Source: Neocallimastix sp. 'constans'
Lineage: Eukaryota
Reading direction: 5' to 3'
NCBI GenBank assembly: GCA_050613775.1
Contig: JBODTK010000133.1
Coordinates: forward strand, 248,001-312,000
DNA: 64,000 nucleotides
Part shown: positions 20,064 to 64,000 of the stretch, piece after piece
Layout of the letters: each line of letters opens with the position of its first letter
Numbering within the stretch: the first letter of the stretch is position 1
Translations under genes and position numbers: made by a program
The notes under the pieces: model-generated
Told to the model about the DNA's origin: nothing
Databases searched by the model: none
What the model saw: only the letters and a program-made list of their open reading frames with translations

Positions 20064-20137
20064 GCTCGCGTAGCCTAATCGGATAGGGCGTCAGACTTCT
20101 AATCTGAAGATTGCGGGTTCAAGTCCCGCCGTGAGTG
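20064..20137 (+). tRNA. tRNA-Arg(UCU): tRNA-Arg, anticodon TCT, no intron
   Basis: Acceptor GCTCGCG/CGTGAGT plus G; anticodon arm TCAGA-CTTCTAA-TCTGA; T arm GCGGG-TTCAAGT-CCCGC. Confidence 0.97.
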
Positions 20138-31991: not shown

Positions 31992-33269
31992 TAATAATTA
32001 AAACTTTTCAATAAAATATTTTAATAAATATACTTTTAAATGCTTTGAAACTTTTTTTTTTTTTAATATTTAAAATAATAAACCTTTTTTTAATTAATTA
32101 TATAATTATTTAATTATTTATTATTTCTTTTATTTACTATTTTATTTATTTATTTTTATTTTTATTTTCTATTTTTATTTTATTTTATTTTTTTTATTTT
32201 TTAATGCTTAAAAAATAAATTTTTATTTATTTTTATTTTATTTTTTAAGCATCAAAAAATAAAATGTTTATTTATTTTTATTTTATTTTTCAATGTTTAA
32301 AAAAAAGTTTTCTTATTTCTTATTTTTATTTTATTTTTTAAGCATTAAAAATAAAATGTTCATTTATTTTTTATTTTATTTTTAATGTTAAATAGAAATA
32401 CCTAACCTAATTATTATTTATTGAAGTGTTGTATTTCGCCAAAAGTTGAATTTCGTCCAGTTGAATTTCGCCAAATTCTTGGTGGCTTATAAAATTTCGT
32501 CATAAAATATCACCACATTTATTATTCACGCCATATTATGAATATATGGCTTTTTAAAAATTGTAGAAAAAAGCCACAAAAATATGATACAATTAGATAT
32601 ACGCCCCACGTAAGATTACGTGTTTGAAAATTTTTGAGAATTGTAATTTTATTTATTTAATTAATTAATTATTATTCATTAAATTTTTAATAAAATTAAG
32701 TGGCTTAAAATTAAAAATATTTAAGCCATATAACAAAATACAAATTTTTGTAGTAAAAATTTTCGAAATGCTCCCCTGAAAATAATATTATAAATTTATT
32801 TTATATTATTTAATATATTATATATACAATTTAAAAATATATTTAAGATAAATTTATAAAATATATTTATTTTATAAAAAGCCACTTTTGAATTTTTTTA
32901 AAATTTATAATATAATAAATATATTTTATAAGAAATATTTTATTCCTATTTAAATTTTATTTCAAAATTAATGGTAATTTTAATATTTATTAATTATTAT
33001 TATTTTTTAAAATATATAAAATTTTTATAAAAATCTAATAAAAACAAAAAATGGACAACGTTTTATAAAATATAATAGTTTTTAATTTTAAATAAATTAT
33101 ACTTATAATTTAAAATATTTATATTTTTTATTATATATAATTATATAATTATATATATTTTTATTTTAATATTTAAAAAATAATATAATTTATTTTTATA
33201 AAATGATTTTTTATAATTTAATTTAAAAAACAAAAAAAAAAAAATAATTTATTATATAAATTACTCAAA

Positions 33270-35903: not shown

Positions 35904-36452
35904 TGTAACGAAATCTTCATGTTGAGGTTCATATTAGAAAAGGAGTGTGAACATTAAATAAATAGATAAATTAACTAATTACTAAATTACACTAAAAGAA
36001 TTTATTATTACACATTATAAATTTTATTTAAAGAACTATTATTAAAAATATTTATTATTTATAAATTATATAATTATTTTATTGTTAAAAATACTTTATT
36101 AATATTAATATTTATTTTAATAACAATATGGGAAACCTTTCAATTATTATTCCTATTTCATTATCACTACTATTTCTACTATTTCTTTCCTCAGAAAGGC
36201 CCCCTCATATAAAATATGGATCATACATTTATTTTATACTATTTAATTACATTATTAGATCCAATCATTTAATTAATAAATTACATAAATTTAATACTTA
36301 AAATTATAAAATATAATATAAAAAAAAATTATTACATAGAATATAAGAAAATTATTAATAGTAAAAAATATAATAATATATTTTTATATAATAAATTATT
36401 AAAAATTTAATTAAAAATAACATTATTATTCTATTCTTTATCATTCAGTTAG

Positions 36453-42400: not shown

Positions 42401-44027
42401 TAACGGTTATGTTTGGGAAACGAAGAGAGCAGGCTGTATCTTGGTATGCTGCGATAAGTTAACCATGATGATACACCTGATAGGATTTAAACATGTGCCC
42501 AACGCTAACGAGACTGCTGACGCATTCCTAAAGGAAATTTACAGGTTGCATGGATTCCCTAAGGTGGTTACAACTGATAGAGGAGTGCAATTCACTAGTC
42601 AGGTATGGAAGGAGCTACTTGAGTTCTTCGGAACAAGAGTAAACCATGCTACCACCAGTCACCATGAGACAGTAGGCCAAGTGGAAAGGAACAATGCCTA
42701 CGTAGAGACTTATTTGCGGTGCTTTGTAGGAACCTACGATGATGACAGTTGGATGGACTACTTGTTTTTAGCAGAGTTCTACTATAACAACGCAATCCAC
42801 GCTTCTACCCAACAATCTCCTTTCCTTACTTTATATAATTACCAAGTACACAACTCCCCTACGACAGCCGACTTAGCGCACTCGTTAGGTGAAGCTAAAA
42901 TGATCGATAGTTTTGCGCATAACTTGGGAAACCTAAAGCACATTTTAGAAATCGCCCAAACAAGATACCTGGATAATATGGATAGGACCCGTACAGATAA
43001 TTACCCCAGTTATAGGTTGTTAGATAAAGTATGGCTAAGGAAACCAGAAAATTATGACGCGTTGCCATTCTACAAACTTGCAACAAGAAAATTCGGATCA
43101 TTCAAGGTAGTTGGTGTCGACGAAGTAAAGAAGAATTACAGGTTAGATATAAGTCGCTCACCCTTCCCAAATATGTACCCAGTGATCCATGTGAGTGAAT
43201 TGGAACCATTCTACAAACTACTTAAGACCTTAGTGCCGGCTCCTGCAGGAAACCAAAAGATAATCCATATCCTTGGATCTAGGAAACACCAAGGACATTA
43301 TCAATATCTGGTTGCGTACCAGAACGACAAACAAGAGTGGGTTAACGCCGACATGATCGACGACAATCCTCACTACGCTGAATTGCTGGAGGATTACCAA
43401 GATTTTAGTTACAGCCAGTTCATTGCTAGCGTCGTCAACCATTAGTAGCTTGCTCCTTGGGAGAGGCCTTGTAACAGATACATGGTAACTTCAAGCCTAT
43501 CCAATGATAGTTCTTTGGTTACGTAACGTATCTCTAAACATCTAGCAATTTCGGCTAATCAAATAAAATCTTTTGTTAATTTCGTACATTAAATTCTATT
43601 ATTTTATAATTAATTATATAGTTAAATACTTAGTTAAATATATTTTATTTAATGATTAGTAAACTAAGTTAAATTAAATTATTTACCAATCATAATATTA
43701 TTGACATGTATAAATAATAATTGAACTTGTAACTGTAACGCACTAGAATTACTATTAACGTAAATTGTTGTTATAAATATTAATATTAATAAATAAAATA
43801 TAATTATTAAATAAAAATATATTACTCAGTGTAAGCCAAGTAACTGATAACGAATAGAGTTATAAAGTGCTGTGCTATATTCTAGTGTAATAGAAAATAA
43901 TAATTATAAAATTTAATTAAGTTAGTGTTTATTATTAACAACTCGAATAGAGAGGTGTTAAGTTATCTTAGCCTTTAAATTTAATTGTTATTCGTTATTT
44001 TAGTTAATAATAAACTTACCTTTTACA
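36453..44027 (+). mobile_element. Ty3/Gypsy retrotransposon with 558-bp LTRs (36453-37010, 43470-44027)
   Basis: TGTAACAG...TTTTACA direct repeats; PPT GGGAGAGGCCT; no matching TSD seen. Confidence 0.95.
37768..43445 (+). pseudogene. gag-pol with a frameshift near 38130 and in-frame stops at 40476, 41148 and 42240
   Basis: LYDTGS, YLDDIVV, ECDAS, TDRGVQF, HHETVGQVERNN, degenerate chromodomain-like tail; ORFs 38157, 40701, 41184 and 42249 share a frame. Confidence 0.93.
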
Positions 44028-44109
44028 CTATGTAAAAGGTACGTTTATTATTAATTGTAGAAAGAATTAATTATTAATATAATTAAATATTTTTAATTAA
44101 TTCTTTACA

Positions 44110-45689
44110 TGTAAAAGGTAAGTTTATTAACTAAAATAACGAATAACAATTAAAATTAAATGTTAAGATAATAACTGAATTTCAATTTCAATTTCAATAA
44201 TTCAGTTATTTGAATTTCAATATTAATAATTAATAATATAATAATTATTATTAAAATATTTAGTAAATAGTCTAGGCCAACTAATTACTAAATATTATTA
44301 ACATATTGAAATTAATATATATTAAATAATGATATAAAACAAATATGTGTAGTAACATATTTGTATATTTAATAATAATTATTAAATATTAAATTTATAT
44401 CTTTTTGATAATAATTATTTTATTTTATTTTATTTCAATATATATTATTATAATTATAATAATTATAATACTTTAATTCATATAAAATTTATATAGTTCT
44501 ATATATTAGAATAATTAATATATTACCTATTTCATATAAATTAAATTATTTATATTAGAAATAGAGAACTCTCTTGTAAATTTTTAGGAATTAGAATTAT
44601 TATTTTAATTGTACGAATATTATAATTTTATTAATAAAATTTACTAAACTACCATTATTTAAAACCCACTGCTTATAAATTATTGCACATAAAAGTCCCG
44701 TATATCAATAATGTAAACACGTGATTGTCATTAAATTAATTTCTACATATTATATTTTAATTATAAAATATAATATTTAGCTAATATTATATTCTTATAT
44801 TTTATTTATATTAAATATTTATATTATTATCTTACTTTATATTATCAATATCAAACTTAATATTAATACTATTACATATTCATATTAATAATTAATATTT
44901 TAATAATTAATTATTTTATATAAATACATGTTTAAATCTTTTGATTAATCCTTTGTAGGATTATTGTAATTTAAATTATAGTAATAATTATATAAAATAA
45001 TAATGTAATAAAATATTATTAAGATTAAATAAAATTTATATTTTGAATAAGAGAACTTAATTATAAAATTTACTAATAACAATATGTTTTAAATAAGAGT
45101 ATAATTAAATTATTAATTAATTACTATAATTTGGCATCTTGACCTAATCGTTAAGGCCAAATTATCTAAAAACTTTAACATTAAAGGCTAAGATAACTTA
45201 ACACCTCTCTATTCGAGTTGTTAATAATAAACACTAACTTAATTAAATTTTATAATTATTATTTTCTATTACACTAGAATATAGCACAGCACTTTATAAC
45301 TCTATTCGTTATCAGTTACTTGGCTTACACTGAGTAATATATTTTTATTTAATAATTATATTTTATTTATTAATATTAATATTTATAACAACAATTTACG
45401 TTAATAGTAATTCTAGTGCGTTACAGTTACAAGTTCAATTATTATTTATACATGTCAATAATATTATGATTGGTAAATAATTTAATTTAACTTAGTTTAC
45501 TAACCACTAAATAAAATATATTTAACTAAGTATTTAACTATATAATTAATTATAAAATAATAGAATTTAATGTACGAAATTAACAAAAGATTTTATTTGA
45601 TTAGCCGAAATTGCTAGCTGTTTAGAGATACGTTACGTAACCAAAGAACTATCATTGGATAGGCTTGAAGTTACCATGTATCTGTTACA
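44110..45689 (-). repeat. Inverted copy of the 558-bp LTR, split by another LTR
   Basis: Reverse complement of 43470-44027 in two parts, 44110-44160 and 45181-45689. Confidence 0.92.
44161..45180. repeat. Solo LTR, 1020 bp
   Basis: TGTTAAGA...CTTTAACA with 5-bp TSD TTAAA. Confidence 0.9.
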
Positions 45690-46000
45690 TGAAACTTTAT
45701 GTAATAATTCTATTAAGAACTAACTCAAAATAGAATTATTGACTACAACTTAACGACTAATTCATTAAGTTGAGAAAATAAAATAAGATAAATTTTTTTT
45801 TTACCTTTAGAGTTTATTATAAAATTAATTATAATAATAACACGAGAAGTAAGAGAAGAATTATTTGTATAAATTTGATTTTAAAATATGTTTTTTGAAT
45901 AAAATATTTTATTAATTTATTATAATTAAAAATATAAAATTGTTACTATTATAACTATGTTTTTATAATAATAACTCTTGATTTCTCAAACCAACTTTAG

Positions 46001-46579
46001 TATAATTATTTTAGAGAAAACAAAATAAATTACGATGAAAATGAATACGGCTTTATTGTGGATAGTAATAGCGTTAAATTAGATACTAATGACATACAAA
46101 CTATTCTTGAAGAGGTAACAATAACCGGAACGAAAGGGATCACAAAAATAGAAACATATAATGACAATGATCAATATATAATCAACGTTACTGGTACCAA
46201 TCTGGATCCCTTGTTCAATAACAAATATATAGATCCTGAACTTTCATATTATCTAGTTTATAGTAATTCTAATGAGATAAGCTTTGATCAAAGAAAGCAA
46301 AATATTTTTAATCAATTAAAAAGAATTGTTGATAATGGTTCGAAAAACTACAATTACAAACATATAAGATTACTAACCAATTTTATGTGTCGAAATAATA
46401 AACTAAATCCAATGTCTCGTTTTGGTATGAACATCAATGAATATTCCTTTATTTCCCGATTGTCCTTTGAATATCCATATAAAATACTTCATGATGTCAT
46501 TTACGATATTGAGGATAATCTAACATCTGTATCCGCAAAATTAATTACAGGAATATATGATACAGAAAACAAATTATAA
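46001..46579 (+). pseudogene. rpb1: C-terminal fragment of a divergent RNA polymerase largest subunit (RPB1-like, probably viral)
   Basis: GTKGI..VTGTNL; NYKHIRLLTNFMC..MSRFGMN..RLSFE..DNLTSVSAKLITG matches the conserved RPB1 C-terminal region; no heptad CTD. Confidence 0.8.
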
Positions 46580-47019
46580 TCAAATGTATTTCTTTATAAT
46601 TTATATATATATATATTTTTTTTTTAAAAAAAAAAAAAACTATCTTACAGAGCAACATAATAGTTTGGTGATAATTTATTTTAATTATTTAAAGTAGTTT
46701 AATTAATAAACCAATTATTTAATAAAAACTTGAAATTTTAAAAATAAATTAAAGAAAAATTCGTATATAAAATAGATTTTTTACAAAATTATTGAATTAG
46801 ATTTACTCAATTAATAAATATTTTGATAAAAGGAAAGTCAATATTTTTAATAAATTAATACGATGATAAAATATACAAATATAACGCTCTTGAAGTTTCG
46901 AACCTAATTAGTTATAAGTAACGTCTTAGTTAATTATTAACATAGATATTTTACTTTTTCTTGATTTTCTTGACAGTATAATGGCTTTCTTAATAAGATA
47001 AATTTAACTATTAATAGTA

Positions 47020-47174
47020 AAGTTTAATATTAATATACAATGGTAACGTTTAATATTAAAGTTTAATATTAATATTTAATGGTAACGTTTAATATTAAAG
47101 TTTAATATTAATATTTAATGGTAACGTTTAATATTAATGTTTAATATTAATATTTAATGTAAACGTTTAATATT
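47020..47174. repeat. 39-bp tandem repeat, about 4 copies
   Basis: TGGTAACGTTTAATATTAAAGTTTAATATTAATATTTAA at 47041, 47080 and 47119 with partial flanking copies. Confidence 0.9.
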
Positions 47175-47790
47175 ATAACAAATATTATAATAAATATAAT
47201 AACACTCAAAAAAAACAAAAAAATTATTTTATTTTTTATTTATTATTTTTTTTTTTTTTATTCTAATTATTTTATTAATTACATTTATTATAATACTATA
47301 AGCCGCAAGGGTTGATATAGTATTAATATTAAAAAAAGTTTTATTAAAAAATTAAGTTTTATTAACTAAAAAATTAAAATAAAAAACACAAAGAGAAGAT
47401 TATTTTTTAATAAGAATTTTACTCATATTTATATTTTTTTCAAAAGTTAAAGTTATTAAAAAATAAAAATAAAAGTTTCTAAAAAGTTCTTAAAAATCGA
47501 AAAATTTAGAAAAAATATAAAACAATAGAATTAAGAATTTAATAGAATAAATTTTAATTAATTAAACACAAGAATTATCAAGAAATTCTAGTAATTTCTT
47601 GAACTATTAAGAATCTTCTAGATATTTTTTTTAGAATAAAACTATAAAATAATAATAAATGTGAATCGAACCCTAAGTAGTTTGATTCATAGTATTAGTT
47701 ACTAACAACTATACCAGAAATAATATTTTTTAAATTTAATTATTTGTTTTAAAACTTTATTGAAAAATAATACTAAATATTAAAATAATA

Positions 47791-47829
47791 TGTTAAGATA
47801 ATAACTGAAATTATCTAAAAACTTTAACA
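47791..47829. mobile_element. 39-bp ends-only derivative of the 44161-45180 LTR family
   Basis: TGTTAAGATAATAACTGAA joined to ATTATCTAAAAACTTTAACA; TSD TAATA on both sides. Confidence 0.85.
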
Positions 47830-48048
47830 TAATAAAATAATTGTAATTATTGATTCTGTTATAAATATAAATACTTATTTATATTTATTGAATGTTTTTA
47901 TTGATTTTTAAAAAATTTTAAAAAATATAAAAAAATAAATATAATAATTATACAATAGAAATTATTTAAAATTAAAATAAAATATCAATATATTTATTAT
48001 TGTTGACCTTGAAATTAGTTGAAGAAAACTAATAGCTATATTTTATTT

Positions 48049-50780
48049 TTATATTAAATCGGCAATATCATTACTATAACACTTTAATAAATTTTTAAAA
48101 CCCGTTCTTATCAAATTTCTATAATAATAATTATAATCAATCTTAGGCTTAATGATAGTTTGATCATGAGCGTGTTCTTCGCAGATTTTGTTGTACAAAT
48201 CCATTGACATCATTTTATTTCCTACATAGTTATTATTCGAATTAAAGGTGAAGGTTGTAGTGTCGAAAACAAAGTAATCTACCTTGTCACCATACTTGTA
48301 GTTCAATTGGTGTTTTTTGTGATTATTAACAAACAACAAAACCTTATTGTTTTTATCGATATATTTGCGACCCACACTTAATTTCATTACCATATCACTT
48401 GGGACATTTCCTGATTTTAAATCTGATATCATCTTCAAAACTTTTTCCCTTATGTAGTTCTTCGGATAGTCATAGAGTATCATATAAATAAATATCTTAT
48501 AATAATCCCTAATAAATATACATGTATTTTTCTTTATTATATCAATACCCTTTATATACAATTTCGAATTATTAGCTAGAAGACCTACATAATTTTTTTG
48601 GATATAATAATCATTCGTGAAAAGGTATTTTCGTATTTTAAATGCATCTCTTCCGGCAAAAGATTAGTGACCATTTCAGCTGCATCGATACTGTCCTTTA
48701 TAAATTTATCCTTTTTATTTTTATTACTATCCATAGGATTATTGTTACCTTTTTTCTGGAGATCATCATTAGCATTATTTCCAAGCGTAGGGCATTGTCC
48801 TTTATTATTTTTTTCGTTATTTTTATTTTTATTACAATTATTACTGTTATCTCCGTGTTTATCTATGTCATGGCCATTACTTTTACAATTTTTATATTCA
48901 ATAAGACATGAATCGGTATCCCCATAGATCACTCTAAAATTAGTTTTTTCATGCAAGATATCAATCGCTTTGTTTAAATAATTTCTTCCCATACCTGTGG
49001 TACATTCAGCACCAGGTAAAAAACTTAAATATTCTAATAGCTTAGAACCGAGACAACCGTAAATGGAGTTAGTCTGGATTTTAAGTGCATACTGTTTTTT
49101 ATCATATATAATGTAATCTGAACCCTGGGCGTTTTTCATATAATTTTTATAGCGTACACGCTCCGTTAATAATACTTTCATTATACGAGGTAAAATACCC
49201 TCATGATATTTTGTAAAATAATAAATTTTATTATTTCCAATATCGATGGTGTGATAAGAATTCTGAGTGTAATTTTTTATATCTTTCTTGTTAATTATCG
49301 TAGTGTAGCATATGTTATGAGTGATGATTACACTTGGATATAAACTGGTGAAATCAAGCATAGTGCAATAGTTGTAAACTCCGAGTTCCGGGTATATGAC
49401 GGTAGCGCCCTGATAATCACTCGTTTTGGTGGAATTCTTGTCAATGAAGATGTCGTTGTCATAGCAAAACTTGTACAGCAAGTTAGTTAGTTTCTTGCTT
49501 TGGCCGGACTTATCGACCTCATCGATACGGATTCTAGATATCTTGGCTACTTCTATCAATTGGATCCACTGGTGCGAAACCTTGAATATTTCGAGAGTTA
49601 AGATGGAATCCATTATACAATAAACGGCTACCTTTTTTAACGCTTCCTCGGTGTTTTCATGGATTAGATAAAACATATCTTTGTACAGCAAATCAATTTT
49701 TCGCTTTTTTAACAACTTTTCCGAAACATAATTTAAGCTGGATGATGGTAAATTCAACGATTTGGCATATTTATATATATCGATGGCTAAACGACCTGGA
49801 GTATATATCTCAAACTCGTCATTCCACAATTCATTGAACTCTGTTATTTTATTGACGATACGACTTGCAGAAAAGCACGTCGAAGATTCATTACTTATTA
49901 AATATATCCCAATTCTCTGCATCATATACATATAATAAAAGCCAAACGTATTGTATCCAATAATGAGATCAGGATCATGAATTCTTATCTGATTAAAGAA
50001 TTCACACAACAACTCATACTCTGTTTCCACAAATATTATTTCATATTCTTCATTAAATGTATTTGCTTTTGTATTATTTTCTTCTTTCTTTCTATCCATC
50101 CTCTTAATAAATTCTTCGATTTCTTCATAATTTTCATACTTGTTTTTTCTTTCTTCGTTTTCCTTTTTTCTATTTTCAATATCTATTTTAGTTTGTGTCT
50201 CCAGACTTGAACTATTGTATATTAAATTTCTAAAATTATTGTATCTATTTCGATTAGAAGATTTCAAGCTATTATTACTTTTCAAGATCGACATGTATTT
50301 TTGGTATTTATTGAAATTTCTATTCCTACTAATATCTTGGCTTTCAATAGAACTGGATATATTCGAAGGTGTTCTATCCATCCCGTTCAAATCCAGAAAT
50401 CTATTTTTATATTTATTATCATCCATAATGCTATTTTTATGGTTGTCATCAATTCTGCTATTTTTATTATCGTCTACACTTTTATTGTTATTGTCATCCA
50501 TACAATTATTGTTATTATTATTATTAGCATTATTAAAATGTTCTTTTTTCTTTAAATATGTCTTAATTGACGTCTGAATTAAATTGACATTTTTCTTTTT
50601 TTCCTAAGATGCTTTCAATACAGGAGTGGAATTTCGGTGAGTCCTTTTAATTTCTGATGGCATATCAAATATACTTCCGGTCACTTCACTTTTGAATTTT
50701 TCAATATCAACGAATGAAATAAATCTGGGATCGATATCACTAAGATTTTCATGATTAATAATTTCGGTATCCTTTATTTG
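48049..50780 (-). pseudogene. polB: Family B DNA polymerase (not protein-primed type, probably viral); N-terminus cut off, TAG at 50604-50606, frameshift near 48595
   Basis: DPDLIIGYN, YCIMD, YQGATV..DFTSLYPS, KQYALKIQTNSIYG, YGDTDS; KKNY..KGID restored by adding one A. Confidence 0.93.
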
Positions 50781-50882
50781 CTACAATCATTATTGAATAC
50801 TTAATTTGATATTTAATTAGAAATTAAAATATATTATTATGAAATATATATAAAATATAGATTAATAATAATAGTTAATAAT

Positions 50883-53800
50883 TGTAAAGATGTGATTATC
50901 CCAATCACATTTTAAATTAAAAATTTTTCTTGTGTAATTCAAAAATGTAAATTATTCTTTGATTTATAAAATAATAAACAAAGTAAATAAATCATATGAA
51001 CTAAATTTTTGAATTATATTCTTTAAGCCACAAGATAAATTTTTAATGTAATAATTTTTATAAAATTTAATTCTGAGAAAATTATTGTTGTAAAATAATT
51101 TAAATGAATTAATTAAAGTTTAAAACAAAATAAATTAATAATTTATTTTGTGAAAATTAAGTTTCAAAATTTAATCATGACTCCTTTAACATTGTTTTTA
51201 AATCGAAAATAAATAAAGACTTTACTTATAATATTAAAATAATAAATAAATAATAAATGTACTTAATTTTAATTATTTAGTATTTAGTTTAATTAATAAT
51301 TATATTTTTCTAAATTTAGCTATAGTTTATAAATTTATTATTTAATAAAATTCATTAGGATAGTTTTATATTAAAATATATGTAATTTAAATAAAATAAT
51401 ATATTATCAATGTATTTAGGAAAAGTATAAATAGAAGATACTTTTCACATTTTTTCTCGATGTAATTGTTATTTTAACGAATAACTATTAAATATTAATA
51501 AAATATATTTTAATAAAAAAATTTTTAATAAAATAAAATTTATTGTATTTTGTTATTGTAATCTATTTTTGTGTTTTCTTTTACAATAACAATTACCTTT
51601 TATTTTAAAAAATACGTTGCAATAACAGAATCCGCAAGCTGAAGATTTTTTTGGTCTACCGCCGGTCAAGAGTTTTTATTCAGAGCTAACCATTTTGGAA
51701 TCAATAATTGGACTGTAATCGAGGACCACAATTCAGGGCTTTAATGAACATTGTATCTAGTAATACAGACTAAAAACAAGTGAGAAAACTCCTTCTAATA
51801 ACCAGAAAAAAAAAATAATTATTCAAAATTAATAAGCCATTTATAAAAAATTAGTTTACTCGACCGTCACCATACATAATTGGATAGAGACCTGGTCGAC
51901 TTTACTAATATAATTATAAAGTTATTAATTTTGAGAAAACAAAACAAAACAAAGCAAAAAATAAATAAATAAATAATTAAATATTAAATTTTCTTAAATT
52001 GGAAGACTTAGAAAGACTCTTTGAAACATTATCCTTGGAAGAGATAATGGAGAATCACGAAGAAAACAATGCATTTGGTGTAATTAATAAGCCGCCATCA
52101 TTTACTGGAAGAAAATGCGACCTTGAGGGATTCCTTACAAGGGCAGAACTAGCAATGGAATCCCGACCAAATCAATTTAATAACGATGCAGCAAGAGTAA
52201 GATTCCTAATGTCTTACATGCTTGGGAAACCTTTGGAATGGGTCTCTTGCTTGCGTAGAAATAATAGCCCATTACTTAACTCATACGATGACTTCGTGAA
52301 AGAGTTAAAATCAAACTTCGGTGATTATACCAGCGAATCCATTGTTGCCAATAGTAAGCTGTGTAGTATTTACCAGAAGAAGAATGGGCACGTATTTGAA
52401 TATATTTCAGAATTCCAAAGGATCGCTCAATATTCTGACTTTAATGAAAGTGCAAAAATATATATGTTCATTAGAGGATTAAAACAACCTTTAAGAGAGA
52501 AACTTGCTTTAATCGATCCAAATCCTAGATCTCTTGATAGGTTAACTACTACAGTATTAAATATAGAAAGCTTAATTAGAAGAAACGAAAAGGTAGAATT
52601 TTTTAGTAATACTGCTGCGCATAACGATCCAATGGACATCGATCTTTACCGTATAAAAAGAGGTCCCAACGAGAGAAAATATACTTACCGTCCAATAAAG
52701 TATAAAGAAGAAAAGAGAGATTATTCAGAAGAAAGAAAGAAGGGCGTTTGTTTCCTATGTAAGCAACCTGGACATCTTAAATTCAATTGTCCAAATAAGA
52801 TAAAGCCAAAAAACTTAAGGTTAATTATGAAGGGAAAAGATACCGATGATAGTGTTATGGGTAACTTTTCAAATATGCGTAGAATAAGAAGACTTACTGA
52901 ACAAGAAGAACTTGTAATGATGAGAGAAGTTACTTGTGAAGACAAAAATCAACAAAAAACAAATATTTTAGATTTTTTTATCAAGACTAATGAGATTGAA
53001 GAAAGAAAGGTTAAGGTTCTTATTGACTCTGGATCCGACTTAAATTTTATCCATCCGGAGGTCGTAAAGAAACTTGGTATTAAGACCGAAAGGATCAACA
53101 AGTCTTTTAGCGTCTCAGGACTTGGATATGGAATCGCTAATGTCACTAAAGAAACTGAAAAATGTATTCTACGTTATAAGAACCACTTAGAAATTATTCA
53201 ATTTTATGTTCTCCGAATCCCAGATGTAGATGTGATTCTAGGACTACCTTGGATTGATAAGCACAGTCCAAGTAATTACCATGATGCTAAGAAAATCGCT
53301 TTTAGTTCTGGTTTTTGTGCTCACCATTGTAATAATGGAAAAAGAAGAAGAAGCAAAAGAAAAAGGACTACTAAGAGAAATAAGATGGCTATTCTTGAAC
53401 AAGAACTTAAAGTAACTGATGAAGAAAAAAGGGAAGAACCATCCTGTTCAAGATCCACTATAAAATACTATTCTGACTCCGAATCCGAACCCGAACCATA
53501 TTTCAAAGGACGAGTTGTTCGAACTATAAATGATGAATCCGATAGTGATTATGATTTAGATGATAATTTTATGTACGATAGTATTAGTGAAAGTGAATTA
53601 GAAAAAAGTTTAGATTGTGAAAATAATAGTGATAGTATAGTTAAAAATGACTCATGTAATAATATTAATTCATGTAATAATATTAATGTTTCATGTAAAA
53701 AGTTTAAATCTTGTAACGAAAATGAAAATTTAAATAAAAATCAAAATTCGGTCACCGTACCAATCATCTATTTAGATTATAAAGAAGTGTTTAATGAAAA

Positions 53801-54950
53801 AAATTGTAGTGTGTTACCTCCACATAGAGTATATGATTGTGAGATAAATTTAAAAGATAATTCAATTTTATTTTATGGTCCTTTGTATCCTTTGACGGAA
53901 TTAGAGCGTGAAGAATTAAAGAAACAATTAAAGGAATTATTAGATAAAGGATTCATTAGAAAATCCACTTCTCCTGCTGGTGCTCCAGTTCTCTTTGTTA
54001 GAAAAAAAGATGGTACATTACGTTTAGTTATTGATTATAGAAAGTTAAATGAAATGACGATACGTAATTCATATCCTTTACCTTTAATTAGTGAACTACT
54101 TGATAGAGTTAAAGGTGCTAAAATATTTACGAAACTAGATTTAAAATCTGCATATAATCTAGTCCGTATTAAAGAAGGCGATGAATATAAAACTGCCTTT
54201 AGAACCAGATATGGGCATTTTGAATTCTTAGTTATGCCTTTCGGACTAAAGAATGCACCTGCTACTTTTCAGCACTTTATCAATGATGTTCTCAGTGATT
54301 ATTTAGATGATTTTGTCATTTCTTATATTGATGATATTCTTATCTTTTCCAATAATATCGAAGAGCATCACAAACATGTTAAAAAGGTATTAAAAAGATT
54401 ACTTGAAAATAATTTAGTTGTGAAATTGGAAAAATGTGAATTTGATAAATCGGAAACCACTTTCCTTGGCTATGTAATTTCGAAAGATGGATTAAAAATG
54501 GATAATGAAAAAGTTAAAGCAATTTTAGAATGGCCTTCTCCAACAAACGTTAAGGAAGTCCAATCGTTCATCGGTCTTTGCAATTATTATCGTCTTTTCA
54601 TAAAAGATTTTGCTAAAATCGCAAATCCTATTCACAAACTCACTAGAAAAAATGTTGAATTTGTTTGGGGTAAAGATCAACAAGACGCTTTCGATAAGTT
54701 AAAGCATTTATTTACTTCTGCTCCTATCTTAAGAAATCCCGACAGTGATAAACCTTTTATAGTTGAAACTGATGCTAGTAACTTTGCTGTTGGAGCTGTA
54801 TTATCTCAAGAATTTGAAGGTAAATTACATCCTGTTGCATTTCTCTCGAAAAGTTTAACTAAATGTCAGAGGAATTACCAAATTTATGATAAAGAATTGT
54901 TAGCAATCAAATTAGCTCTTGAAGAATGGCGACATTACTTAGAAGGTGCT
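50883..54950 (+). mobile_element. Gypsy element: 5' LTR 50883-51585 and gag-pol, truncated in RNase H
   Basis: TGTAAAGA...TTTTACA LTR; ORF breaks at WRHYLEGA; pol closely resembles bases 1-720. Confidence 0.93.
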
Positions 54951-54974
54951 ATCATTATTGAATACTTAATTTGA
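51999..54974 (+). CDS. Single-frame Gag-protease-RT-partial RNase H polyprotein
   Basis: CFLCKQPGHLKFNC, LIDSGS, YIDDILI, ETDAS. Confidence 0.92.
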   Translation: MEDLERLFETLSLEEIMENHEENNAFGVINKPPSFTGRKCDLEGFLTRAELAMESRPNQFNNDAARVRFLMSYMLGKPLEWVSCLRRNNSPLLNSYDDFVKELKSNFGDYTSESIVANSKLCSIYQKKNGHVFEYISEFQRIAQYSDFNESAKIYMFIRGLKQPLREKLALIDPNPRSLDRLTTTVLNIESLIRRNEKVEFFSNTAAHNDPMDIDLYRIKRGPNERKYTYRPIKYKEEKRDYSEERKKGVCFLCKQPGHLKFNCPNKIKPKNLRLIMKGKDTDDSVMGNFSNMRRIRRLTEQEELVMMREVTCEDKNQQKTNILDFFIKTNEIEERKVKVLIDSGSDLNFIHPEVVKKLGIKTERINKSFSVSGLGYGIANVTKETEKCILRYKNHLEIIQFYVLRIPDVDVILGLPWIDKHSPSNYHDAKKIAFSSGFCAHHCNNGKRRRSKRKRTTKRNKMAILEQELKVTDEEKREEPSCSRSTIKYYSDSESEPEPYFKGRVVRTINDESDSDYDLDDNFMYDSISESELEKSLDCENNSDSIVKNDSCNNINSCNNINVSCKKFKSCNENENLNKNQNSVTVPIIYLDYKEVFNEKNCSVLPPHRVYDCEINLKDNSILFYGPLYPLTELEREELKKQLKELLDKGFIRKSTSPAGAPVLFVRKKDGTLRLVIDYRKLNEMTIRNSYPLPLISELLDRVKGAKIFTKLDLKSAYNLVRIKEGDEYKTAFRTRYGHFEFLVMPFGLKNAPATFQHFINDVLSDYLDDFVISYIDDILIFSNNIEEHHKHVKKVLKRLLENNLVVKLEKCEFDKSETTFLGYVISKDGLKMDNEKVKAILEWPSPTNVKEVQSFIGLCNYYRLFIKDFAKIANPIHKLTRKNVEFVWGKDQQDAFDKLKHLFTSAPILRNPDSDKPFIVETDASNFAVGAVLSQEFEGKLHPVAFLSKSLTKCQRNYQIYDKELLAIKLALEEWRHYLEGAIIIEYLI

Positions 54975-55199
54975 TATTTAATTAGAAATTAAAATATATT
55001 ATTATGAAATATATATAAAATATAGATTAATAATAATAGTTAATAATTATATAATAAAATAATGTAAATAAAATAAATGATGTAAAATAGTTGAATTCAT
55101 TGAAAATTTTTATTGATATTCCTGAAATAATAACCATATAAATTAAAAAATAAATAACAATTAAAAGTAAAATTATTAATTACATTTAATTTAATTTGG

Positions 55200-56040
55200 T
55201 GTAATTTTATTTGTTTTATTTATTATAATTGTTATTATTAATAAATTTGTTTTTTTTTTTACGTTTTTATAAAGTTTTGATTTAAAAAATAGATTATAAG
55301 TCAAAAATTATAATAACACTAAATAACACAAAATTGTTTTATAAACAACTAAGTTTTATTATATTTAGATTTTAAAATAATCTTTATTAATTATTAGTGT
55401 TATTAACAATAAATCGTTAATAACAATTACATCGATTAAAATACATGAAATTTGGTTAACTATTTATATTTTTATCTTATTACATTTAGAATATATAATT
55501 CCTATTGAATTATATTATCTAACTATTTATTTAAAAACAATACTAACCTAAACTAATAATAAATAATTAACTATTACTAAATAAAGAGAATTATAATTAA
55601 TAACTAAAATAAATATAATCAATTCTAATTGAGTTCATTTATTATTTATTTATTATTTAAATATTATTAGTAAATTTATTATATATTTTCTATTTTAAAA
55701 TAATATAAAAGTTGTCATAATTATTTAATATAAATTTAGCATAAAATGCCGTAAGTTTCAACATGACTAATTGCATAGTTTCATGTTGTTAATTTATCTT
55801 GTAAAAAACCTTAACTCTTATTATTTAAATTAAATTACATAAAAAGAAATGATTTTCAATTACTAGTTTCACAAGAGAAATTTTTAATTTATTAATATGA
55901 TTGGGAAGAAGTCGAAGTTTTGTTTAAAATTATTTGCAATAATTTTATACACGTGATTTTTAATAGATTTATTTCAATTTTACTTAAATTTATGATTAAA
56001 TTTAATTAAAATTTATAAAGATATTAATAATATCTTTACA
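55200..56040 (-). repeat. Solo LTR of the same family as the 2537 LTR
   Basis: Reverse-complement match; TG...CA ends; flanks do not form a TSD. Confidence 0.85.
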
Positions 56041-56389
56041 GTTTTATTATTATTTATTTTATATACATATACTTCTTTATTTAAAATATTAATTAATGAT
56101 TTTTTTTTAATTCTTGTTGATTTTTATTGATTATTCTTTTAATTTTTAAAAGTATATTTAATAATATTACAAGTAAATATTTCAATAATAATTTTAAAAC
56201 AGACAAATTTAATAACTAGCAATTTAATTGAATAAATATTATTTTTTTTTTTAAAATGAAAATTAATTTATAAAATAATAGATACATATATATCATTAAA
56301 TATATAAATTTTATATTATTGGTTTCTTCAGAAGAAAGAAAGAAGTTCTAAATAACCATCATCCGATAATTTATTTCTTAATTGTACTT

Positions 56390-57970
56390 TTGAAATATGA
56401 TGAAAGTAAACAAACTAAATCGTACAAACTATTGAATAAATATTTCGAAGAAAATAATATAAGAACATCGGATGGATATAATAATATTTATGATGAAATA
56501 AAAGAAAACAAAATAAACGAAATAAATGAGAAACTTGGTAATATAAATATCGATGGGAATGATAATTCAAAAAATAAACGAATAAAGACGGATATTATTG
56601 ATATTATTTAGAGTTGCATTGATGAGTATGGGGAACGTGAAGTTAATATGGCAAAATTAATGACGATTAAAAAGTACTTCAGTAAAGCTGTAATAAATAG
56701 CAAAATTATTTCCAAAATATTTATCGTTCTAAATCTTGGTTATCTGGTATTCAGTGATAACGAATGGTATAAGTTTTCGTATGAACGTAACGGATGGGAA
56801 AAGCTAAGTATTTACAATCTCGCCAAAGAAGTCAATCTTCACTTAGTGAATGAATTAAAAGAGCTCTGCTTGGAATACCACTACTCACTCGAAGGACTTA
56901 CCAATAAAATATTATCGTTTTTGAACAAAAACGGTATTACTCATAACAACTTGGATCAATTCGAAACATTCTTCTACACCGAAAATTTTATTTATCGAAT
57001 AAATAAAAACTACGTTCTAAGATTCGAAGATTGCGTCTACGACTTCAATAAGAAATCATCACGTCCTGGTCGCCCAAGCGATTTCTGTTTGAAATCAACC
57101 AATTACAAGTACTACAGCGAGCACAGGGGTAAGATAGCAGAGGTCAAACAATTTCTTAAAGATATTTTTGTAGAGGATGAATTGATTAAATATGTGGTGA
57201 AGATTTTAGCTTCGACGCTTACCTTAGGTAATATATTACGTTCGATTGTATTTTTTATTGGCTCGGGTCGAAATGGGAAAACCACCTTCACGAACATGCT
57301 ACATCTTGCTTTAGGGGATTATGCTGCCACTCCAAATGTTTCCTTATTTTTAGGAAAGTCGGTAACCGCCGATAAACCGAGTCCACATATGATAGACCTT
57401 AATAATTCAAGAGTCGCCATATGTGAGGAACCTGACGGTCGCTCGATTAATATTACTGGTAACACAAAGGCCATTACCGGTAATGTTGGCTACATTAAAT
57501 CCAGATCTTTATACAAGGATCTTCAAACCGTGTATGTGGATCTATTACCGATTATCAATACCAATGATAAATTGACCATTTCAAACTTGGATAACGCATT
57601 AATTGATCGTATTTTGGTGATTCCATTTACTCAACGATTTGTCAATAAAAAGAATATTTCCATTCTAACTTCCACTCAAAACATCAACAATCCTTCTGTA
57701 AAGCATGCCAATCCAACATGGCAAGGACCGAAAATTCAAGCTTATGCCGAGGCTCTTATCCATTTGCTGATTCAGAATTATCAGGAAGATTACACTACCC
57801 TAGAAATTCCTTCAATGGTCATTGAAGCTACCAAGTCATTTATTATGCGTAGTGATCATATAGCCAGATTCCTAGAAAAAGATATAACTGGTGAAAATGA
57901 TAACTATGCTATTTCAATCGATGAGTGCTATTCCCGCTATAATATTATTATGTTATATTATATAACATAA
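56390..57970 (+). pseudogene. D5-like primase-helicase, SF3 helicase part; in-frame TAG at 56609, primase domain not seen
   Basis: GSGRNGKTT, RVAICEEPD, INTN, DRILVIPF; D5_N-like F..CVYDF..RPGRPSDFC; both ORFs share a frame. Confidence 0.9.
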
Positions 57971-58409
57971 TAATATTTAATAAAATATTAATATAATTTG
58001 AAATATTTAAATATTATTTAAACTCTATACTTTTTTATAGCAATAAAATTTTATTTGTTTTGATTTATTAATTCCTAGTAATAACTTAAGTATACTTTTA
58101 TAGTAAATATTTATTTAATGTAAAATTAACAAGAGTTTAAATTTTTTTATATATTTTATAATTAATATTATATAAAACTATGAATTATAATTTTTTTTTA
58201 AAAATTTAAATGAATTTATTTTACTTTCTTTTTTATTTATTCATATTTTTTAAAAACTTTTTGAAATATTTTATTCATATATTTATATAAATATATCTTT
58301 TTTAGTATACAGTTTATATAAGTAAATAAATAAATGTAATTTTAGAATCATTAATAACAGTGTAATGTTTTTTTTTTTTTAAAAAAATATTTTAATTTAT
58401 AAAATATTG

Positions 58410-58443
<34 letters not shown>

Positions 58444-58526
58444 AAAAAATTTATTTAGTTAAAGCAAAGCTTTATTTAATTCAAAATATAATTATTCAAT
58501 TTTATAATTTATTATAAAAGTTTTAT

Positions 58527-61500
58527 TTATTCGTAAATTTTAGTATGTAAACTAATAGACTCCAAGTAGGAATTCATGATGTTAAAACTATTTGATATTG
58601 AAAGTGTTTTTGTTGATGTATCACAACAAGTGTCTTTTGTACCTAATGAATGACATACATTACAATATTTTATTTCTGTAAGGTCAGTGTTATTTTTAAA
58701 CATATCTTGTAGGATGGCATTAGCCCTATGAGCTATTAATGCGTCTCTTTCCATTTCTCCAATACGTAATCCACTATTTTGTGATTTACCTTCCGTAGGC
58801 TGTTTACTTATTGCATTAACATTTCCGAGAATACGATAAAACATTTTTTCTTCGACTTGATGCTGTAATGCTGTGTAATAGCAAACTCCAACAAAGGCTT
58901 CTCCTATGAATTTACCGGTGATGGAATCCACCATTTTTTCCATGATCGGAATAACGCTATCAATGTAGTTGGCTTCAAAATTTTTGATATCATTGCTCTC
59001 AATGGATGCATCGAAAAACGTTCCAAAACGTTGAGGATCCATCACCATACATTTTCCAACAAACATTTCAATTAAATGTCCTACTGTCACACGAGAAGGA
59101 AAGGCGTGTGGATTAACAATAATATCGGGAATAATTCCAAATTCGGTGCGTGGGTTTAATTGCTCTGGCATAATAGATCCAATTACTCCCTTCTAGGCAT
59201 ATCTACTTGCAAATTTATTGCCTTGTTACGGTTTATACAAATGACGAATTTCAACACAACAATAGCAAATATCATCCTCAACAAAGGTAGTACAATGATC
59301 CACATAAACCAGTCTTTTAAATATATTTTCGATATCTCTGACTTCATTTTTAGTAAAATTATATATACGGAAAAGTGGTTCATTACTATAAAACGAATTT
59401 CTAGCAATCAATGTATTTGGTTTAGGTAATCCATTTTCATAATTTGAATTGATATTAATCAAGATTTCATCTTGGATGCTGTAGGAAATATATTGATATC
59501 GATATTTTATATTAGCGAACATACCATTCTCAATACTAGTTTCATTGAATATTACACTGTCTTCTTGATTATTTCCAAATGCCATAATAGCGACGACTGC
59601 ATTCTGTCCATTAAATATATGGTAATTGTTGTTTTTCGTAATCAGGATGGATTGATCTCTTTCAATTTCAATATTGGACAACTCATTAATACTCTTTCTA
59701 AACTCTTCATTATCTAGATTAACTTTTTCTCAAATTTTGAATAAATTTATTTCAATTCATTATCTTTATCGAAAGTACCGCTGGAAGATTCTATATTTTT
59801 ATTATGATGTTCGTATTCCGGTTCTTGGTATTGTTTATTTTCATCGTTTCTTTCTTCAACATTTTTACAAAATTTGTTGCATAATCCATTATCATCATTA
59901 TTGTGACTTGAATCGGTATCTATCTCATTCTTTAAATTTTCATTATCGTCAGACTCCATATTCTTAAATAATTCCATAATTATCTCCGAATTAATATCGA
60001 TAGCCTCATTTCCACTCTTGGTCCGATTTATAAAAAACGTCAAAGATTCAAAATGGAATAATCATCTTGATAAGATTGCTTCTAACTTAGTCATGCAGAA
60101 TGGCTTCTGAGCGTTAATTAATTTTCTAGAATTATCATTAAAGTTAAAAATTGTACTATCATTAGACATACATTGTTTCGTCATACCGGCTTGAAATGTA
60201 AGTCGAGAAACATGATTATTACCTGGAAATGGTGATAACGCACTGATTAATCCAAAAATAAAATTTGGGTCGAGTTCTTCATATTCGAAATCGCTATTAC
60301 TTATATACTCAGCAACGTCAATAAATCTAATACCAAAGACAATATTACCTTTCCGAACTCTTAGAGGTCTTACAATTCTTCCTTCATCAGTGAAAAGGTA
60401 ATAAGCTACTTCATCAAATATGCAGCTAATAAAAGGATATCTTAATTTTAGATCTCTGTAAGTAAATTCGGCCAAGTTGCAGGTAGTGAAACTTATGAAT
60501 CTAGAATTCAATAATACTGGATATTCTCTTTTATCACTTTGTTTGTTCTCTTTAAAGTCATTATAATGAGGAGAATCATAAAGTACTGACGATAAGTAGG
60601 ATAAATCCATAGTAAAATCAGGAGCAATCAATACCGATAGTCCAAAATACTTCACTAGCCCTACATCCTTAGACTCTGGTGTTTCAAAGGGACAAAAGTA
60701 GCCGTATTGGTAGGACAAACGTAACTCCAAATTTTCACTTTCCGTATTAATTGGTATCTGTACTCTTCGAATATGCGATAACTTATCGTAATAAGACCGT
60801 TTGCTTAGCGTTTGAACAGCTATGGAAGAATATTCACAAAAATAAGACCTAATCGTACCGGATTTGACCATGTTATATAAAGTTAAATTCAAATTGGATA
60901 CAAAACTACTCGTGTCTAATTTTTTATTTTTTCTATCCATTCCAAAATATTTTATTTTTCGGTGTATGGAACAGGGGAAACAATCAATCCGATTACTAAA
61001 GTAAGACTTACTACTATTAAAATCTAAGAACACTCTCGCCATGCATAAATAGGTGTAAAATTTGGTGTTTATATCGTCATAGGAAGAACGATCACAATGT
61101 AAAGAATCTGGTGTGAGATAACTGTCGATCATGCCATTGATAATGCTAATGATTTCTTCTTTGGATTCCTTTCGATGAGATAAGATGGATTCTAGAGTGG
61201 TTTCTGGAGAAGAATCTGAAATCATTATTTCTATATTCTCAGGAATGTTTTTCCCAATGACATTTTCTATAATAATCTGTTTAATTTCACTCAATGAAAA
61301 TTCCGGCTTTAAATAACGAAGCACATACACTAACGAGATACTCTGCTTTTCGTGCGATTTAATTCCTTTAACACGTAATAACTGGAAAAATAAGGAATAA
61401 TAAAAGCGAATGTCTAAAAGAACGTGTCTTTTCATTTTCGTCAACTTTCTACGACAATCCTTACTCAAAAAAGTATAGTAGAAATCAAATTTTGTATGCT

Positions 61501-61978
61501 CATTACTAAAATTTTTTATAGATTTCTCATCCTTTCCCTTATTCAACACTTTTCTTACATATTCAATATACTTATAATCCGTAAACATTTCAGGCGATTG
61601 AAATTTTCCTTCCTTATTACATTCTTTATATTCAATACAATCATTTTTATAGATGAAAATGGGAGTACAAAATAACTCCTGAGAAATAATTATTTTTTCT
61701 ATTCCTTCGACGATAAACACACCATCTATCGGCGCTGGTATTTGTATTTCAAAAGAGTCATGCACTAAAGAAATAAAATAGGTTTTTTTCTGAATCATCA
61801 AATGATCGTATTTCACTTCAGGGATAATAATGTCTAAAGGATTCAATTCCGGTTTTATTTGTTCAAGAAATAACTTGATATCAAAAAGCTTCTTTATAAA
61901 TAGTTTATCAAGATTAGCATAGACGCCATATTTATCAATAAACCATTTCATATAATCGATATTCTCTTTATCAACCAT
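58527..61978 (-). pseudogene. rpb2: Divergent RNA polymerase second-largest subunit (RPB2-like, probably viral), with stops and a frameshift
   Basis: GVFIVEGIEK, LSHIRR, CPFETPE..GLVK, GNNQEDS, GNKFASRYA*KG, PDIIVNPHAFPSR, QPTEGK, GLRIGEMERD, C-terminal CxxC. Confidence 0.95.
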
Positions 61979-62603
61979 GTCTTCTTGGAATGATTTCTTT
62001 GTTAAAAATTCTAAATTAATTTCTCATATATATAATCAGTTGAGAAACACACAGTATATTCCACCAGTAGAAAATGTATTTAAAATATTTTCTTTTATTG
62101 ATTTAGAAAAAGTTAAAGTAGTTATTGTTGGGGATGAACCTTATGATAATGAAAATGAAATAAGCGATATTGCTATTGCCACTAAAAAAACAAATATTTT
62201 ACCTCCCAAACTTTTGAGAAATATTTACACCAATTTAGAAAATCATGTCAAGGCTTATAAACCAATATCCAATCACCACTTGGATCGATGGCTTGACAAA
62301 GGGATATTCTTATGTAATTTTTGTTTTACTCGTCCACGTTTCCAATCTACTCCTAAGAGTTATTATTTATTATGGGAACCATTTATTAACAATTTGGTAG
62401 AATACATTTCTAATGATCATCCAGTAGTGTTCATACTATTTGATTCGATAGATTCATCCCTTCGTAAATCCATTAATGAGAGTAAATGTTCGGTTGTAAC
62501 TATTCCTCATCCTATTAAAAAGTATTATCAATTCAAAAATTCAAACTGTTTTGTTAAGGCTCAACAACTTGCTTGTAACCTTGGATATACTTTTAAGTGG
62601 TAA
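61977..62603 (+). CDS. ung: Uracil-DNA glycosylase, family 1-like, divergent
   Basis: PPVENVF, VKVVIVGDEPY, LRNIY, WLDKGIFLCN, VVFILF, PHP. Confidence 0.85.
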   Translation: MSSWNDFFVKNSKLISHIYNQLRNTQYIPPVENVFKIFSFIDLEKVKVVIVGDEPYDNENEISDIAIATKKTNILPPKLLRNIYTNLENHVKAYKPISNHHLDRWLDKGIFLCNFCFTRPRFQSTPKSYYLLWEPFINNLVEYISNDHPVVFILFDSIDSSLRKSINESKCSVVTIPHPIKKYYQFKNSNCFVKAQQLACNLGYTFKW

Positions 62604-63165
62604 CTTTGGTATAACTAAATTTAAATTTTACTTTAATTTCGATTTTATTAATGATTAATAAATACATAGCATTTGATTTATTCAATAAAATTTTATTAAA
62701 ATGGCAGGAATATTTTCATATAGTATTTTTTAATAATATTAAAGATTTTTAAAATATTATAATAAATTTCGAAATTAAAAAAAAAAAATATTAAATATGT
62801 TTTTAAATTAAATATTTTATTAAAAAATTAATAATATGTATATTCTATTTTCTTCAATGACAGTATTATATTTGATTTTGAATATTTTATATCTTGTTTA
62901 TTTTTAACTTTTACCTACTTACTTATTAAATTTTATTTTTATTTTTAATTTTACTTTTTAAAAAACAAAAACTAAATCATATATAAAACGTTAGTTATTT
63001 CGAATTTATAAATTGATAAATTCATAATTTATTTTATGTAATACAAATTTTAATTAGAATTAGTTATTTTTATTTATTAATAATTTAGTCTACTCAAATA
63101 GTATCTATTAAACAAAATATTTAAAAAAAAATAGTTACACGATAATATTATTATAACTATTTAAG

Positions 63166-64000
63166 ATGAATCCAGTGATTCCTAGTAGTCATTATTTATT
63201 ATTGGATAAGCAATTATCATTAGATACTATTTTGGATAATATGTATAATCAAATATGTATCTTTAAAAATCATAAATTATATAAATCGGGAGATATTAAT
63301 TTTGAATTAGAATTTAGATTAAGAAATAAATACATCAATATTGATATTAATGATTTTGTTAAATGTATGAGTTGTCAACATCACGAGTATTTATTCAAAG
63401 AAAATAAAACGACAAGATACAGAATTATATGCGAATCAAGCTATCCAGCCAACATAAACGAAGATCAGGATATAAATCTAGAAAATGAAGAAGAAAATAA
63501 AAAAGGAAAAGAAAAGGAAGAAGAAAACAAAGAAAATAAAAAGATTTCGAAGCTTTATACATATGTCGATACCAATTCAGAAAAGGAAATCACCGAAACG
63601 CTAAATGGAAAAGTTGAATTCACCAAAAAAATGACTTTGATGACGGCTTATTATTTCGTTTATAAAATTGTACTTAGTATTGAAACCAATCTAGATGTCA
63701 GCGACATAGTAAGTTTTCTAGACAACGGTTTGGTTGAAACAGAAACAGAAAATGGTTATAATAAAAAAATTAAATCTAATAAGGGGCTAAATATTTTACA
63801 ATTCATTACTCCAACTATAAAATATAGAAAATCATATATTCTTCACAAGGATGTACGGATTGATGTAACGAAGTATGAGGATAAAAGCCAATTCGATATT
63901 GATTTCTCAAGAAATATTAATCGTGAAAGAAGTGATATGATAAACATTGTACATGATATTATGTTATTACTTGATTGTTCTAATTTTGTATTAGATTATT
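63166..64000 (+). CDS. Putative viral mRNA capping enzyme, N-terminal RNA triphosphatase (tunnel-metalloenzyme) domain; runs off the window
   Basis: My translation is open from ATG 63166 to the end: FELEFRL, KIVLSIE, KYRKSY, VRIDVT, FDIDF in the order expected for ExExR, LSxE, KxRxS, RIDxT and ExE. Confidence 0.7.
   Translation, partial: MNPVIPSSHYLLLDKQLSLDTILDNMYNQICIFKNHKLYKSGDINFELEFRLRNKYINIDINDFVKCMSCQHHEYLFKENKTTRYRIICESSYPANINEDQDINLENEEENKKGKEKEEENKENKKISKLYTYVDTNSEKEITETLNGKVEFTKKMTLMTAYYFVYKIVLSIETNLDVSDIVSFLDNGLVETETENGYNKKIKSNKGLNILQFITPTIKYRKSYILHKDVRIDVTKYEDKSQFDIDFSRNINRERSDMINIVHDIMLLLDCSNFVLDY

Follow-up and report, generated by a model that had tools for sequence, protein, structure and literature searches.

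Six virus-type genes lie side by side in a 64,000-nucleotide stretch of the genome of Neocallimastix sp. 'constans' (GenBank assembly GCA_050613775.1, contig JBODTK010000133.1, positions 248,001 to 312,000 of the forward strand; hereafter the window, numbered from its first letter), and they raise the question of what they came from and whether their source still exists. The initial annotation, made from the letters alone, read them as integrated, decaying DNA of a Nucleocytoviricota-related virus or of a capsid-less virus-derived replicon, possibly of an undescribed lineage. We are highly confident that the locus, at 45985-64000, is a decayed copy of a fundsalphavirus, a family first described in 2020. 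By every feature tested it is a member of that family and thus known in kind, and it is a chromosomally inserted, broken copy that likely derives from a small replicon, itself likely still intact.

All six genes were present where they had been placed, based on a Pfam scan covering 16 window open reading frames (ORFs) and on alignments to relatives. They include a family B DNA polymerase (PolB), a D5 helicase, RNA polymerase subunits and a capping enzyme, the core set of Nucleocytoviricota that had been recognized, and they align to full-length relatives without introns, as had also been proposed. The leftmost gene (45985-46579, plus strand) matches RNA_pol_Rpb1_5 (PF04998; 46001-46576, E = 4.5e-7) and is most likely a separate RP1c gene, the C-terminal part of a split RNA polymerase large subunit, with its 5′ end cut off; RP1c comes after POL in Fig. 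S2 of Gong et al. (PMC7017919). A PolB pseudogene at 48049-50774 (minus strand), supported by Pfam, a phylogenetic tree and read contigs, has DNA_pol_B and exonuclease matches at 48588-50603 (E = 9e-50 and 2e-13) and 48052-48663 (1e-8). The D5-like superfamily 3 helicase pseudogene at 56318-57945 (plus strand) has a D5_N match at 56612-57967 (E = 1e-9), and its top PDB matches are vaccinia D5, MPXV E5 and ASFV C962R (E = 3e-5 to 9e-5); close relatives begin just upstream of the window frame. An AEP primase match was lacking in a 694-aa gut-fungal D5 relative (P0249) and present in a 942-aa distant match; the D5-fused primase that is a trait of virion-forming Nucleocytoviricota was not detected in the gut-fungal relatives. 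An RPB2 pseudogene (58527-61978, minus strand) carries Rpb2 domains 3, 6 and 7 at 58530-62023. Next to it, a family-1 uracil-DNA glycosylase (UDG; 61977-62603, plus strand) has an open frame of 208 aa (Pfam E = 5e-5; match to E. coli Ung, 4e-19), with the motif GDEPY versus GQDPY in E. coli. The likely starts of RPB2 and UDG meet head to head on one CATG palindrome (61976-61979), and since the two start codons overlap, each promoter would sit within the other gene. We make no claim of a promoter motif of the yeast virus-like element type, for which the sequence was inspected by eye.

The last of the six genes runs from 63166 past the window end (63166-64000, plus strand) and is the 5′ part, comprising the triphosphatase domain, of a triphosphatase-guanylyltransferase-methyltransferase capping enzyme, the remainder of which is predicted to lie beyond 64000 and to be followed by a chitin-binding gene. 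This ORF had no Pfam match of its own, and was instead identified by 93% identity over 276 residues to relatives of 812-838 aa. Capping relatives of 799-838 aa contain ExExR, KTDG and glycine-rich motifs, which we take to mark the triphosphatase, guanylyltransferase and methyltransferase, respectively, and they score to mRNA_cap_C (E = 5e-5 to 0.03, below the cut-off) and to methyltransferase families. In the Atlas, the nearest neighbours of a capping homologue, in its N-terminal part, are Nucleocytoviricota clusters and capping enzymes; the AlphaFold model is poor (pLDDT 41), and its Foldseek matches to vaccinia D1 may be used as a lead only. No capsid, packaging ATPase or VLTF3 family was detected by Pfam among the 16 window ORFs, in agreement with the initial annotation.

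The suggestion of an undescribed lineage did not hold, as fundsalphaviruses with the same gene order were named by Gong, Zhang and Han in 2020, who reported them in five gut fungi, including 26 PolB copies in N. californiae, and placed them beside Pithovirus (PMC7017919). The order in gut fungi given in their Fig. S2 is ChtBD1, methyltransferase (MTase), UDG, RPB2, D5, DnaJ, POL, RP1c, helicase and RP1n, as taken from machine-read figure text in which rows may be slightly off; read from right to left, the window has capping/MTase, UDG, RPB2, D5, a gap, POL and RP1c. It thus shares with these viruses the flanking genes D5, RPB2, RP1c and SAM methyltransferase, as well as an endogenous state with stops and frameshifts. 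RP1n, the SNF2 helicase and RPB5 were not found within the 64-kb window; RP1n and the helicase would be expected on the left side of RP1c, beyond the point at which this copy breaks off. Searches with PolB returned 196 matches, the closest from Neocallimastix, Piromyces, Anaeromyces or metagenomes, and nine of them lie on eight contigs equal in size to loci in Fig. S2 of Gong et al. Pithovirus LCDPAC01 was the best named virus (32% identity); for a sister PolB (P0181), the viruses retrieved were all distant, at 23-38% identity.

We carried out the PolB phylogeny that had been proposed as a check, using IQ-TREE on 656 columns and 28 rows chosen from 59, with two Pol delta rows recognized by their C-terminal zinc-finger domain and no Pol zeta among the rows. 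The window PolB fell in a six-row gut-fungal clade (support 100/100) nested in a 15-row clade that contains Pithovirus LCDPAC01 (99/98). Forcing the window PolB together with the two Pol delta rows was 118 log units worse and was rejected by the approximately unbiased (AU) test (p-AU = 2e-9). The gut-fungal clade sits on a long branch within the pithovirus-holding clade, and the tree does not show it to be the direct sister of the pithoviruses. For RPB2, placement rests on the published RPB2 tree (PMC7017919).

Several lines of evidence place this DNA in the fungal genome, as had been claimed. Two Neocallimastix contigs, of 732,543 and 477,459 bp, have gene models with the same damaged PolB, and both models take the same Ty3-leader exons; one of these differs from the window by a single residue, and the other may come from the window's own assembly. 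Metagenome proteins assembled from short reads stop at the same PolB frameshift. The presence of the damaged gene on two long contigs indicates that the integration is real, and together with the metagenome proteins these shared lesions make the chimeric join that had been named as a refuting outcome unlikely.

The decay that had been described was evident in four of the six genes, which are broken by stops, frameshifts or lost ends. RP1c has lost its 5′ part and has one stop (45998-46000); a relative's contig in sequencing run X14 matches 45985-46394 and then continues leftwards in different letters. PolB lacks its first ~208 codons and has a stop at 50604-50606, a frameshift near 48592 and an Asp-to-Tyr change in the second exonuclease motif. 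RPB2 has three in-frame stops (60062, 59226 and 59193) and one frameshift near 59740, and D5 has a damaged start, a stop at 56609-56611 and no final ~50 codons, while the frame of UDG is intact, as is that of the capping gene up to the window edge. Sequencing reads were used to check lesions over 45600-51200, a span outside which the RPB2, D5 and capping lesions lie. Among 25 listed differences between the window PolB and a close sibling described below (from 40 of 152 table rows), there were 17 changed and 6 silent codons, a ratio near the expectation for unselected change. The raw reads of an RNA run (X23), from a strain that may lack the locus, gave a depth below 1 for most of PolB and of no more than ~1 for RP1c. 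We also considered a C-to-T decay bias, given that the three RPB2 stops face R, Q and Q, and rejected it because the listed changes are unpolarised and CpG shows no depletion.

The cluster is broken up by Ty3 pieces, which bears out the reported interleaving with long terminal repeat (LTR) elements of the host. A truncated Ty3 retroelement at 50786-55048 (plus strand; gag-pol ORF 51981-54974), flanked by a perfect 98-bp duplication (50786-50883 and 54951-55048), occupies the place where other copies have the PolB 5′ end and a DnaJ-like gene. It is followed by a likely solo LTR at 55227-56040 (minus strand; 94% identity to 2537-3353, adjoining another Ty3 element), and an inverted LTR copy lies at the cluster's left edge (45175-45689, minus strand; 99% identity to 43470-43984 and 36453-36967). 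Between the converging ends of RP1c and PolB is an AT-rich tandem array of a 39-bp (3 × 13) unit (47011-47175; 4.2 copies with 95% matches by TRF), which is to be counted as part of the element judging from the high-depth sibling, where it joins 47870 directly. The 734-bp stretch at 47136-47869 has no counterpart in the sibling (joint from 47135 to 47870, at depth 432 in run X1 and 16 in run X14) and is likely an inserted host repeat.

If the window holds a fossil, its relatives need not be fossils. The sibling PolB, found in the DNA runs X1 and X4, is ~97% identical to that of the window (49 differences in 1,949 bases in X4), and has neither the frameshift nor the 734-bp insert. Its contigs have a word depth of 430-469 in X1, against 40-51 in 11 of 13 other joints (best 15 of 99), and of 357-380 in X4, against 16-31 in 12 of 13 other joints (best 15 of 99). 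This suggests some 10-14 near-identical copies of the sibling per genome, if depth, a rough measure rather than a copy number, can be so read. A second subfamily, whose PolB is 76-84% identical to that of Piromyces finnis, is full-length in all six PolB members (1032-1033 aa) and in all seven capping enzyme members (801-812 aa). Considering only the longest contig per protein, the PolB variants lie on contigs of 11,565, 42,473, 42,285, 42,490, 28,339 and 36,808 bp and the capping variants on contigs of 42,490, 42,416, 42,473, 39,579, 42,384, 27,066 and 28,339 bp, so that three PolB and four capping members fall on contigs of 42,285-42,490 bp. Three contig sizes are common to the two lists, and both genes are therefore likely to be on the same molecules. 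One N. californiae contig of 40,310 bp has its genes in a circularly permuted order (PMC7017919), which together with the recurring ~42-kb contigs points to a unit of ~42 kb, either circular or in tandem. A third subfamily comprises 83 RPB2 members, of which 7 of the 15 listed have 1177 aa. JGI metagenomes contained one 3.4-kb locus with a full 1111-aa PolB. DNA of close relatives was not found in IMG/VR, whether scanned with RPB2, with alignments of PolB and of the capping enzyme or with the tandem repeat, nor in a GTDB scan, and none of these scans, JGI included, gave a 42-kb contig. As separate observations, among runs X14, X21 and X22 of one sample, one holds 0.46 of the words and the other two next to none, the kinds of run being guessed; six metatranscriptomes hold 0.11-0.14 of the words, and were not used as evidence.

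To account for these results we favour, with modest confidence, a free cytoplasmic replicon of ~42 kb that is integrated into chromosomes by accident. Such an element would make its own RNA with RP1n, RP1c and RPB2, together with the SNF2-like helicase seen in published copies, would cap it with its own three-domain enzyme, and would replicate by means of PolB, the D5 helicase and UDG. Given that no primase domain was detected in the gut-fungal D5, priming must come from elsewhere, and would need either the host or the element's own polymerase. A private RNA polymerase, capping enzyme and UDG would be a kit useful outside the nucleus, which fits cytoplasmic replication; Maumus et al. argued likewise for relatives in moss, where they reported no capsid, ATPase or integrase (PMC4083422). 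Copies likely enter chromosomes by accident, as no integrase is listed in any published copy, and once inserted they would fall silent, decay without selection and be hit by Ty3 elements. The capsid-less replicon proposed in the initial annotation thus gains support from the intact relatives, while it stays a proposal. A more extended version is tentative, and taken as a whole we lean against it: that fundsalphaviruses are living, capsid-less, multicopy cytoplasmic plasmids of ~42 kb from pithovirus-like giant viruses, inherited through zoospores, with their own transcription apparatus and maybe a chitin-binding cargo, that shed decaying copies into chromosomes.

A number of observations weigh against a free replicon. 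The unit, topology and gene content of the 42-kb form are deduced from contig sizes, and contig depth is a rough measure of copy number. No high-depth contig over RP1c was found in X1 and X4, where the filter may hide one. RPB5 is not among the genes listed for gut-fungal copies by Gong et al. (PMC7017919). Furthermore, a 3.8-Mb contig carries a near-full PolB model (P0002) and a single 308-kb contig carries two RPB2 copies, indicating that intact-looking copies are also chromosomal. It is conceivable, although in our view unlikely, that the element is now purely chromosomal and multiplies as tandem or dispersed copies. The 42-kb contigs and the tenfold depth would then reflect the collapse of near-identical repeats, from which the same depth signal would be expected. 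The full-length 1177-aa RPB2 copies, which are on contigs of 20-453 kb, and the many PolB copies of N. californiae would fit such a state. On the other hand, the published gene lists have no integrase or transposase (PMC7017919), an RNA polymerase and a capping enzyme of its own would hardly benefit a nuclear element (the argument made for moss; PMC4083422), and full-length genes are kept in subfamilies at 50-60% identity.

Somewhat less probable still is a virion-forming, pithovirus-like source, either with a capsid gene too divergent to be recognized or with a core segment alone that inserted repeatedly. Known genes fill, by our estimate, only about half of the 42 kb, which leaves room for a divergent capsid gene and is a further point against a capsid-less replicon. 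A32 is lacking in pithovirus-like genomes although these retain a capsid gene (PMC6401483), so that the missing A32 is uninformative here. Of the 10 N. californiae rows extending to RP1n or the methyltransferase, 8 include a chitin-binding gene, which could serve cell-wall attachment, and Gong et al. infer cross-species transmission (PMC7017919). However, no gut fungus is among the fungal rows of their capsid tree, Myers et al. report capsid genes in 17 of 141 fungi, all in three other phyla (PMC13533422), and the moss relatives also have neither capsid nor ATPase in the published description (PMC4083422). A capsid gene is thus likely absent from the gut-fungal elements. Lastly, we regard divergent host paralogues or a chimeric join to foreign DNA as largely refuted and very improbable: Pol delta is the best PDB sequence match of an intact PolB relative and the intergenic DNA is host-like at 9-14% GC, but the PDB holds few viral PolBs, the AU test rejects the union with Pol delta, the cluster is intronless and conserved in order, and the lesions recur in two long contigs and in short-read metagenome proteins.

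Comparison with known systems helps to define what a free ~42-kb replicon would add. The published fundsalphaviruses resemble the window in gut-fungal hosts, clade, gene order, stops and frameshifts, and retroelement neighbours, but were presented as molecular fossils (PMC7017919), whereas here there are intact high-depth and 42-kb relatives; in addition, their 'SAM' gene is a full three-domain capping enzyme here, and D5 is without a detected primase domain. The NCLDV-like (nucleocytoplasmic large DNA virus-like) regions of the moss Physcomitrella patens, which nest within fundsalphaviruses according to Gong et al. (PMC7017919), likewise have a split RPB1, RPB2, UDG, PolB and D5, are free of capsid and ATPase, and are silent, but they are ~13 kb long, carry RPB5, TFIIS and FLAP, and are described as inactive copies only, with the donor left open (PMC4083422). 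Pithovirus-like viruses provide the best named viral PolB match, belong to the same supported clade and lack A32, but their genomes reach hundreds of kb and include a capsid gene (PMC6401483). Mycodnaviridae are also giant-virus DNA in zoosporic fungi, but they were found via capsid genes in other phyla, and the main text is silent on gut fungi and pithoviruses (PMC13533422). Yeast virus-like elements, cytosolic plasmids of the pGKL type, are capsid-less and have their own RNA polymerase, capping enzyme and helicase, all of Nucleocytoviricota origin (PMC13348850); the gut-fungal element resembles them in its private transcription kit and in having no known particle. They use a protein-primed PolB, whereas the gut-fungal element has a delta-like PolB (PF00136 and PF03104, with Pol delta as the best solved relatives) and a D5 helicase and is ~3× longer, so polymerase type sets it apart from this group, in line with the initial annotation, which had set yeast linear plasmids aside. 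As an aside, a Zancudomyces fundsalphavirus locus abuts a LysM-ChtBD1-GH18 chitinase gene of the zymocin-alpha type, and in gut fungi a ChtBD1 gene is repeatedly found next to RP1n or the capping gene (PMC7017919).

By itself the locus adds a further fossil to a family known since 2020, and its relatives matter more. Fungal copies are treated as fossils or pseudogenes in the papers considered here, and what the capsid-less NCLDV-like clusters are has been a standing question since they were reported from moss in 2014 (PMC4083422). What is new is evidence, albeit indirect, for a living ~42-kb form and a tenfold-depth sibling, according to which the fundsalphaviruses, although presented as fossils, may still be replicating, possibly in the form of a capsid-less plasmid. 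We found no report of intact or extrachromosomal fundsalphaviruses in the literature searched, most subscription journals being outside its scope; within it the name fundsalphavirus appears in a single paper, and the main texts of PMC12344493 and of a preprint (10.1101/2025.04.19.649669) do not mention these fungi. Given full-length genes on recurring 42-kb contigs and a sibling at tenfold depth, the question can be tested in rumen fungi that grow in culture. If correct, life as a free replicon would be new among the descendants of giant viruses, and these elements would be the smallest Nucleocytoviricota-derived replicons to keep both PolB and RNA polymerase. They would account for the lack of a capsid in the moss elements, would offer a model of the unknown donor from which yeast killer plasmids took their transcription genes, and could possibly provide a native vector for these fungi, in which genetic engineering is difficult.

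Some further features were observed in the window and among relatives. A second capping-gene fragment with upstream DNA, frameshifted and abutting a Ty3 gag frame, lies at 24058-24760 (plus strand; 96.7% identity to 62865-63582), outside the range 46001-64000 covered by the initial annotation. Relatives of D5 occur in the chytrids Gaertneriomyces sp. and Lobulomyces angularis (P0256 and P0264), hosts outside the 2020 list, and further ones are on contigs of 21-47 kb; in a 17-kb IMG/VR locus (L025), RPB5 and glycosyltransferases come after PolB, as in a pithovirus-like gene neighbourhood. The host side of the window comprises Ty3 elements, a fragment of a Mutator-like element (MULE; broken transposase at 30556-31835), a tRNA-Arg(TCT) gene (20064-20137) and a broken gene for a secreted protein with PI-PLC, ricin and double CBM10 domains (33222-35957). 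The Ty3 element at 36453-44035 has LTRs that are 99% identical, yet three in-frame stops in gag-pol, and a high GC content (41%). Given that PI-PLC, once with CBM10, adjoins two other fundsalphavirus loci in Fig. S2 of PMC7017919, this neighbourhood may recur.

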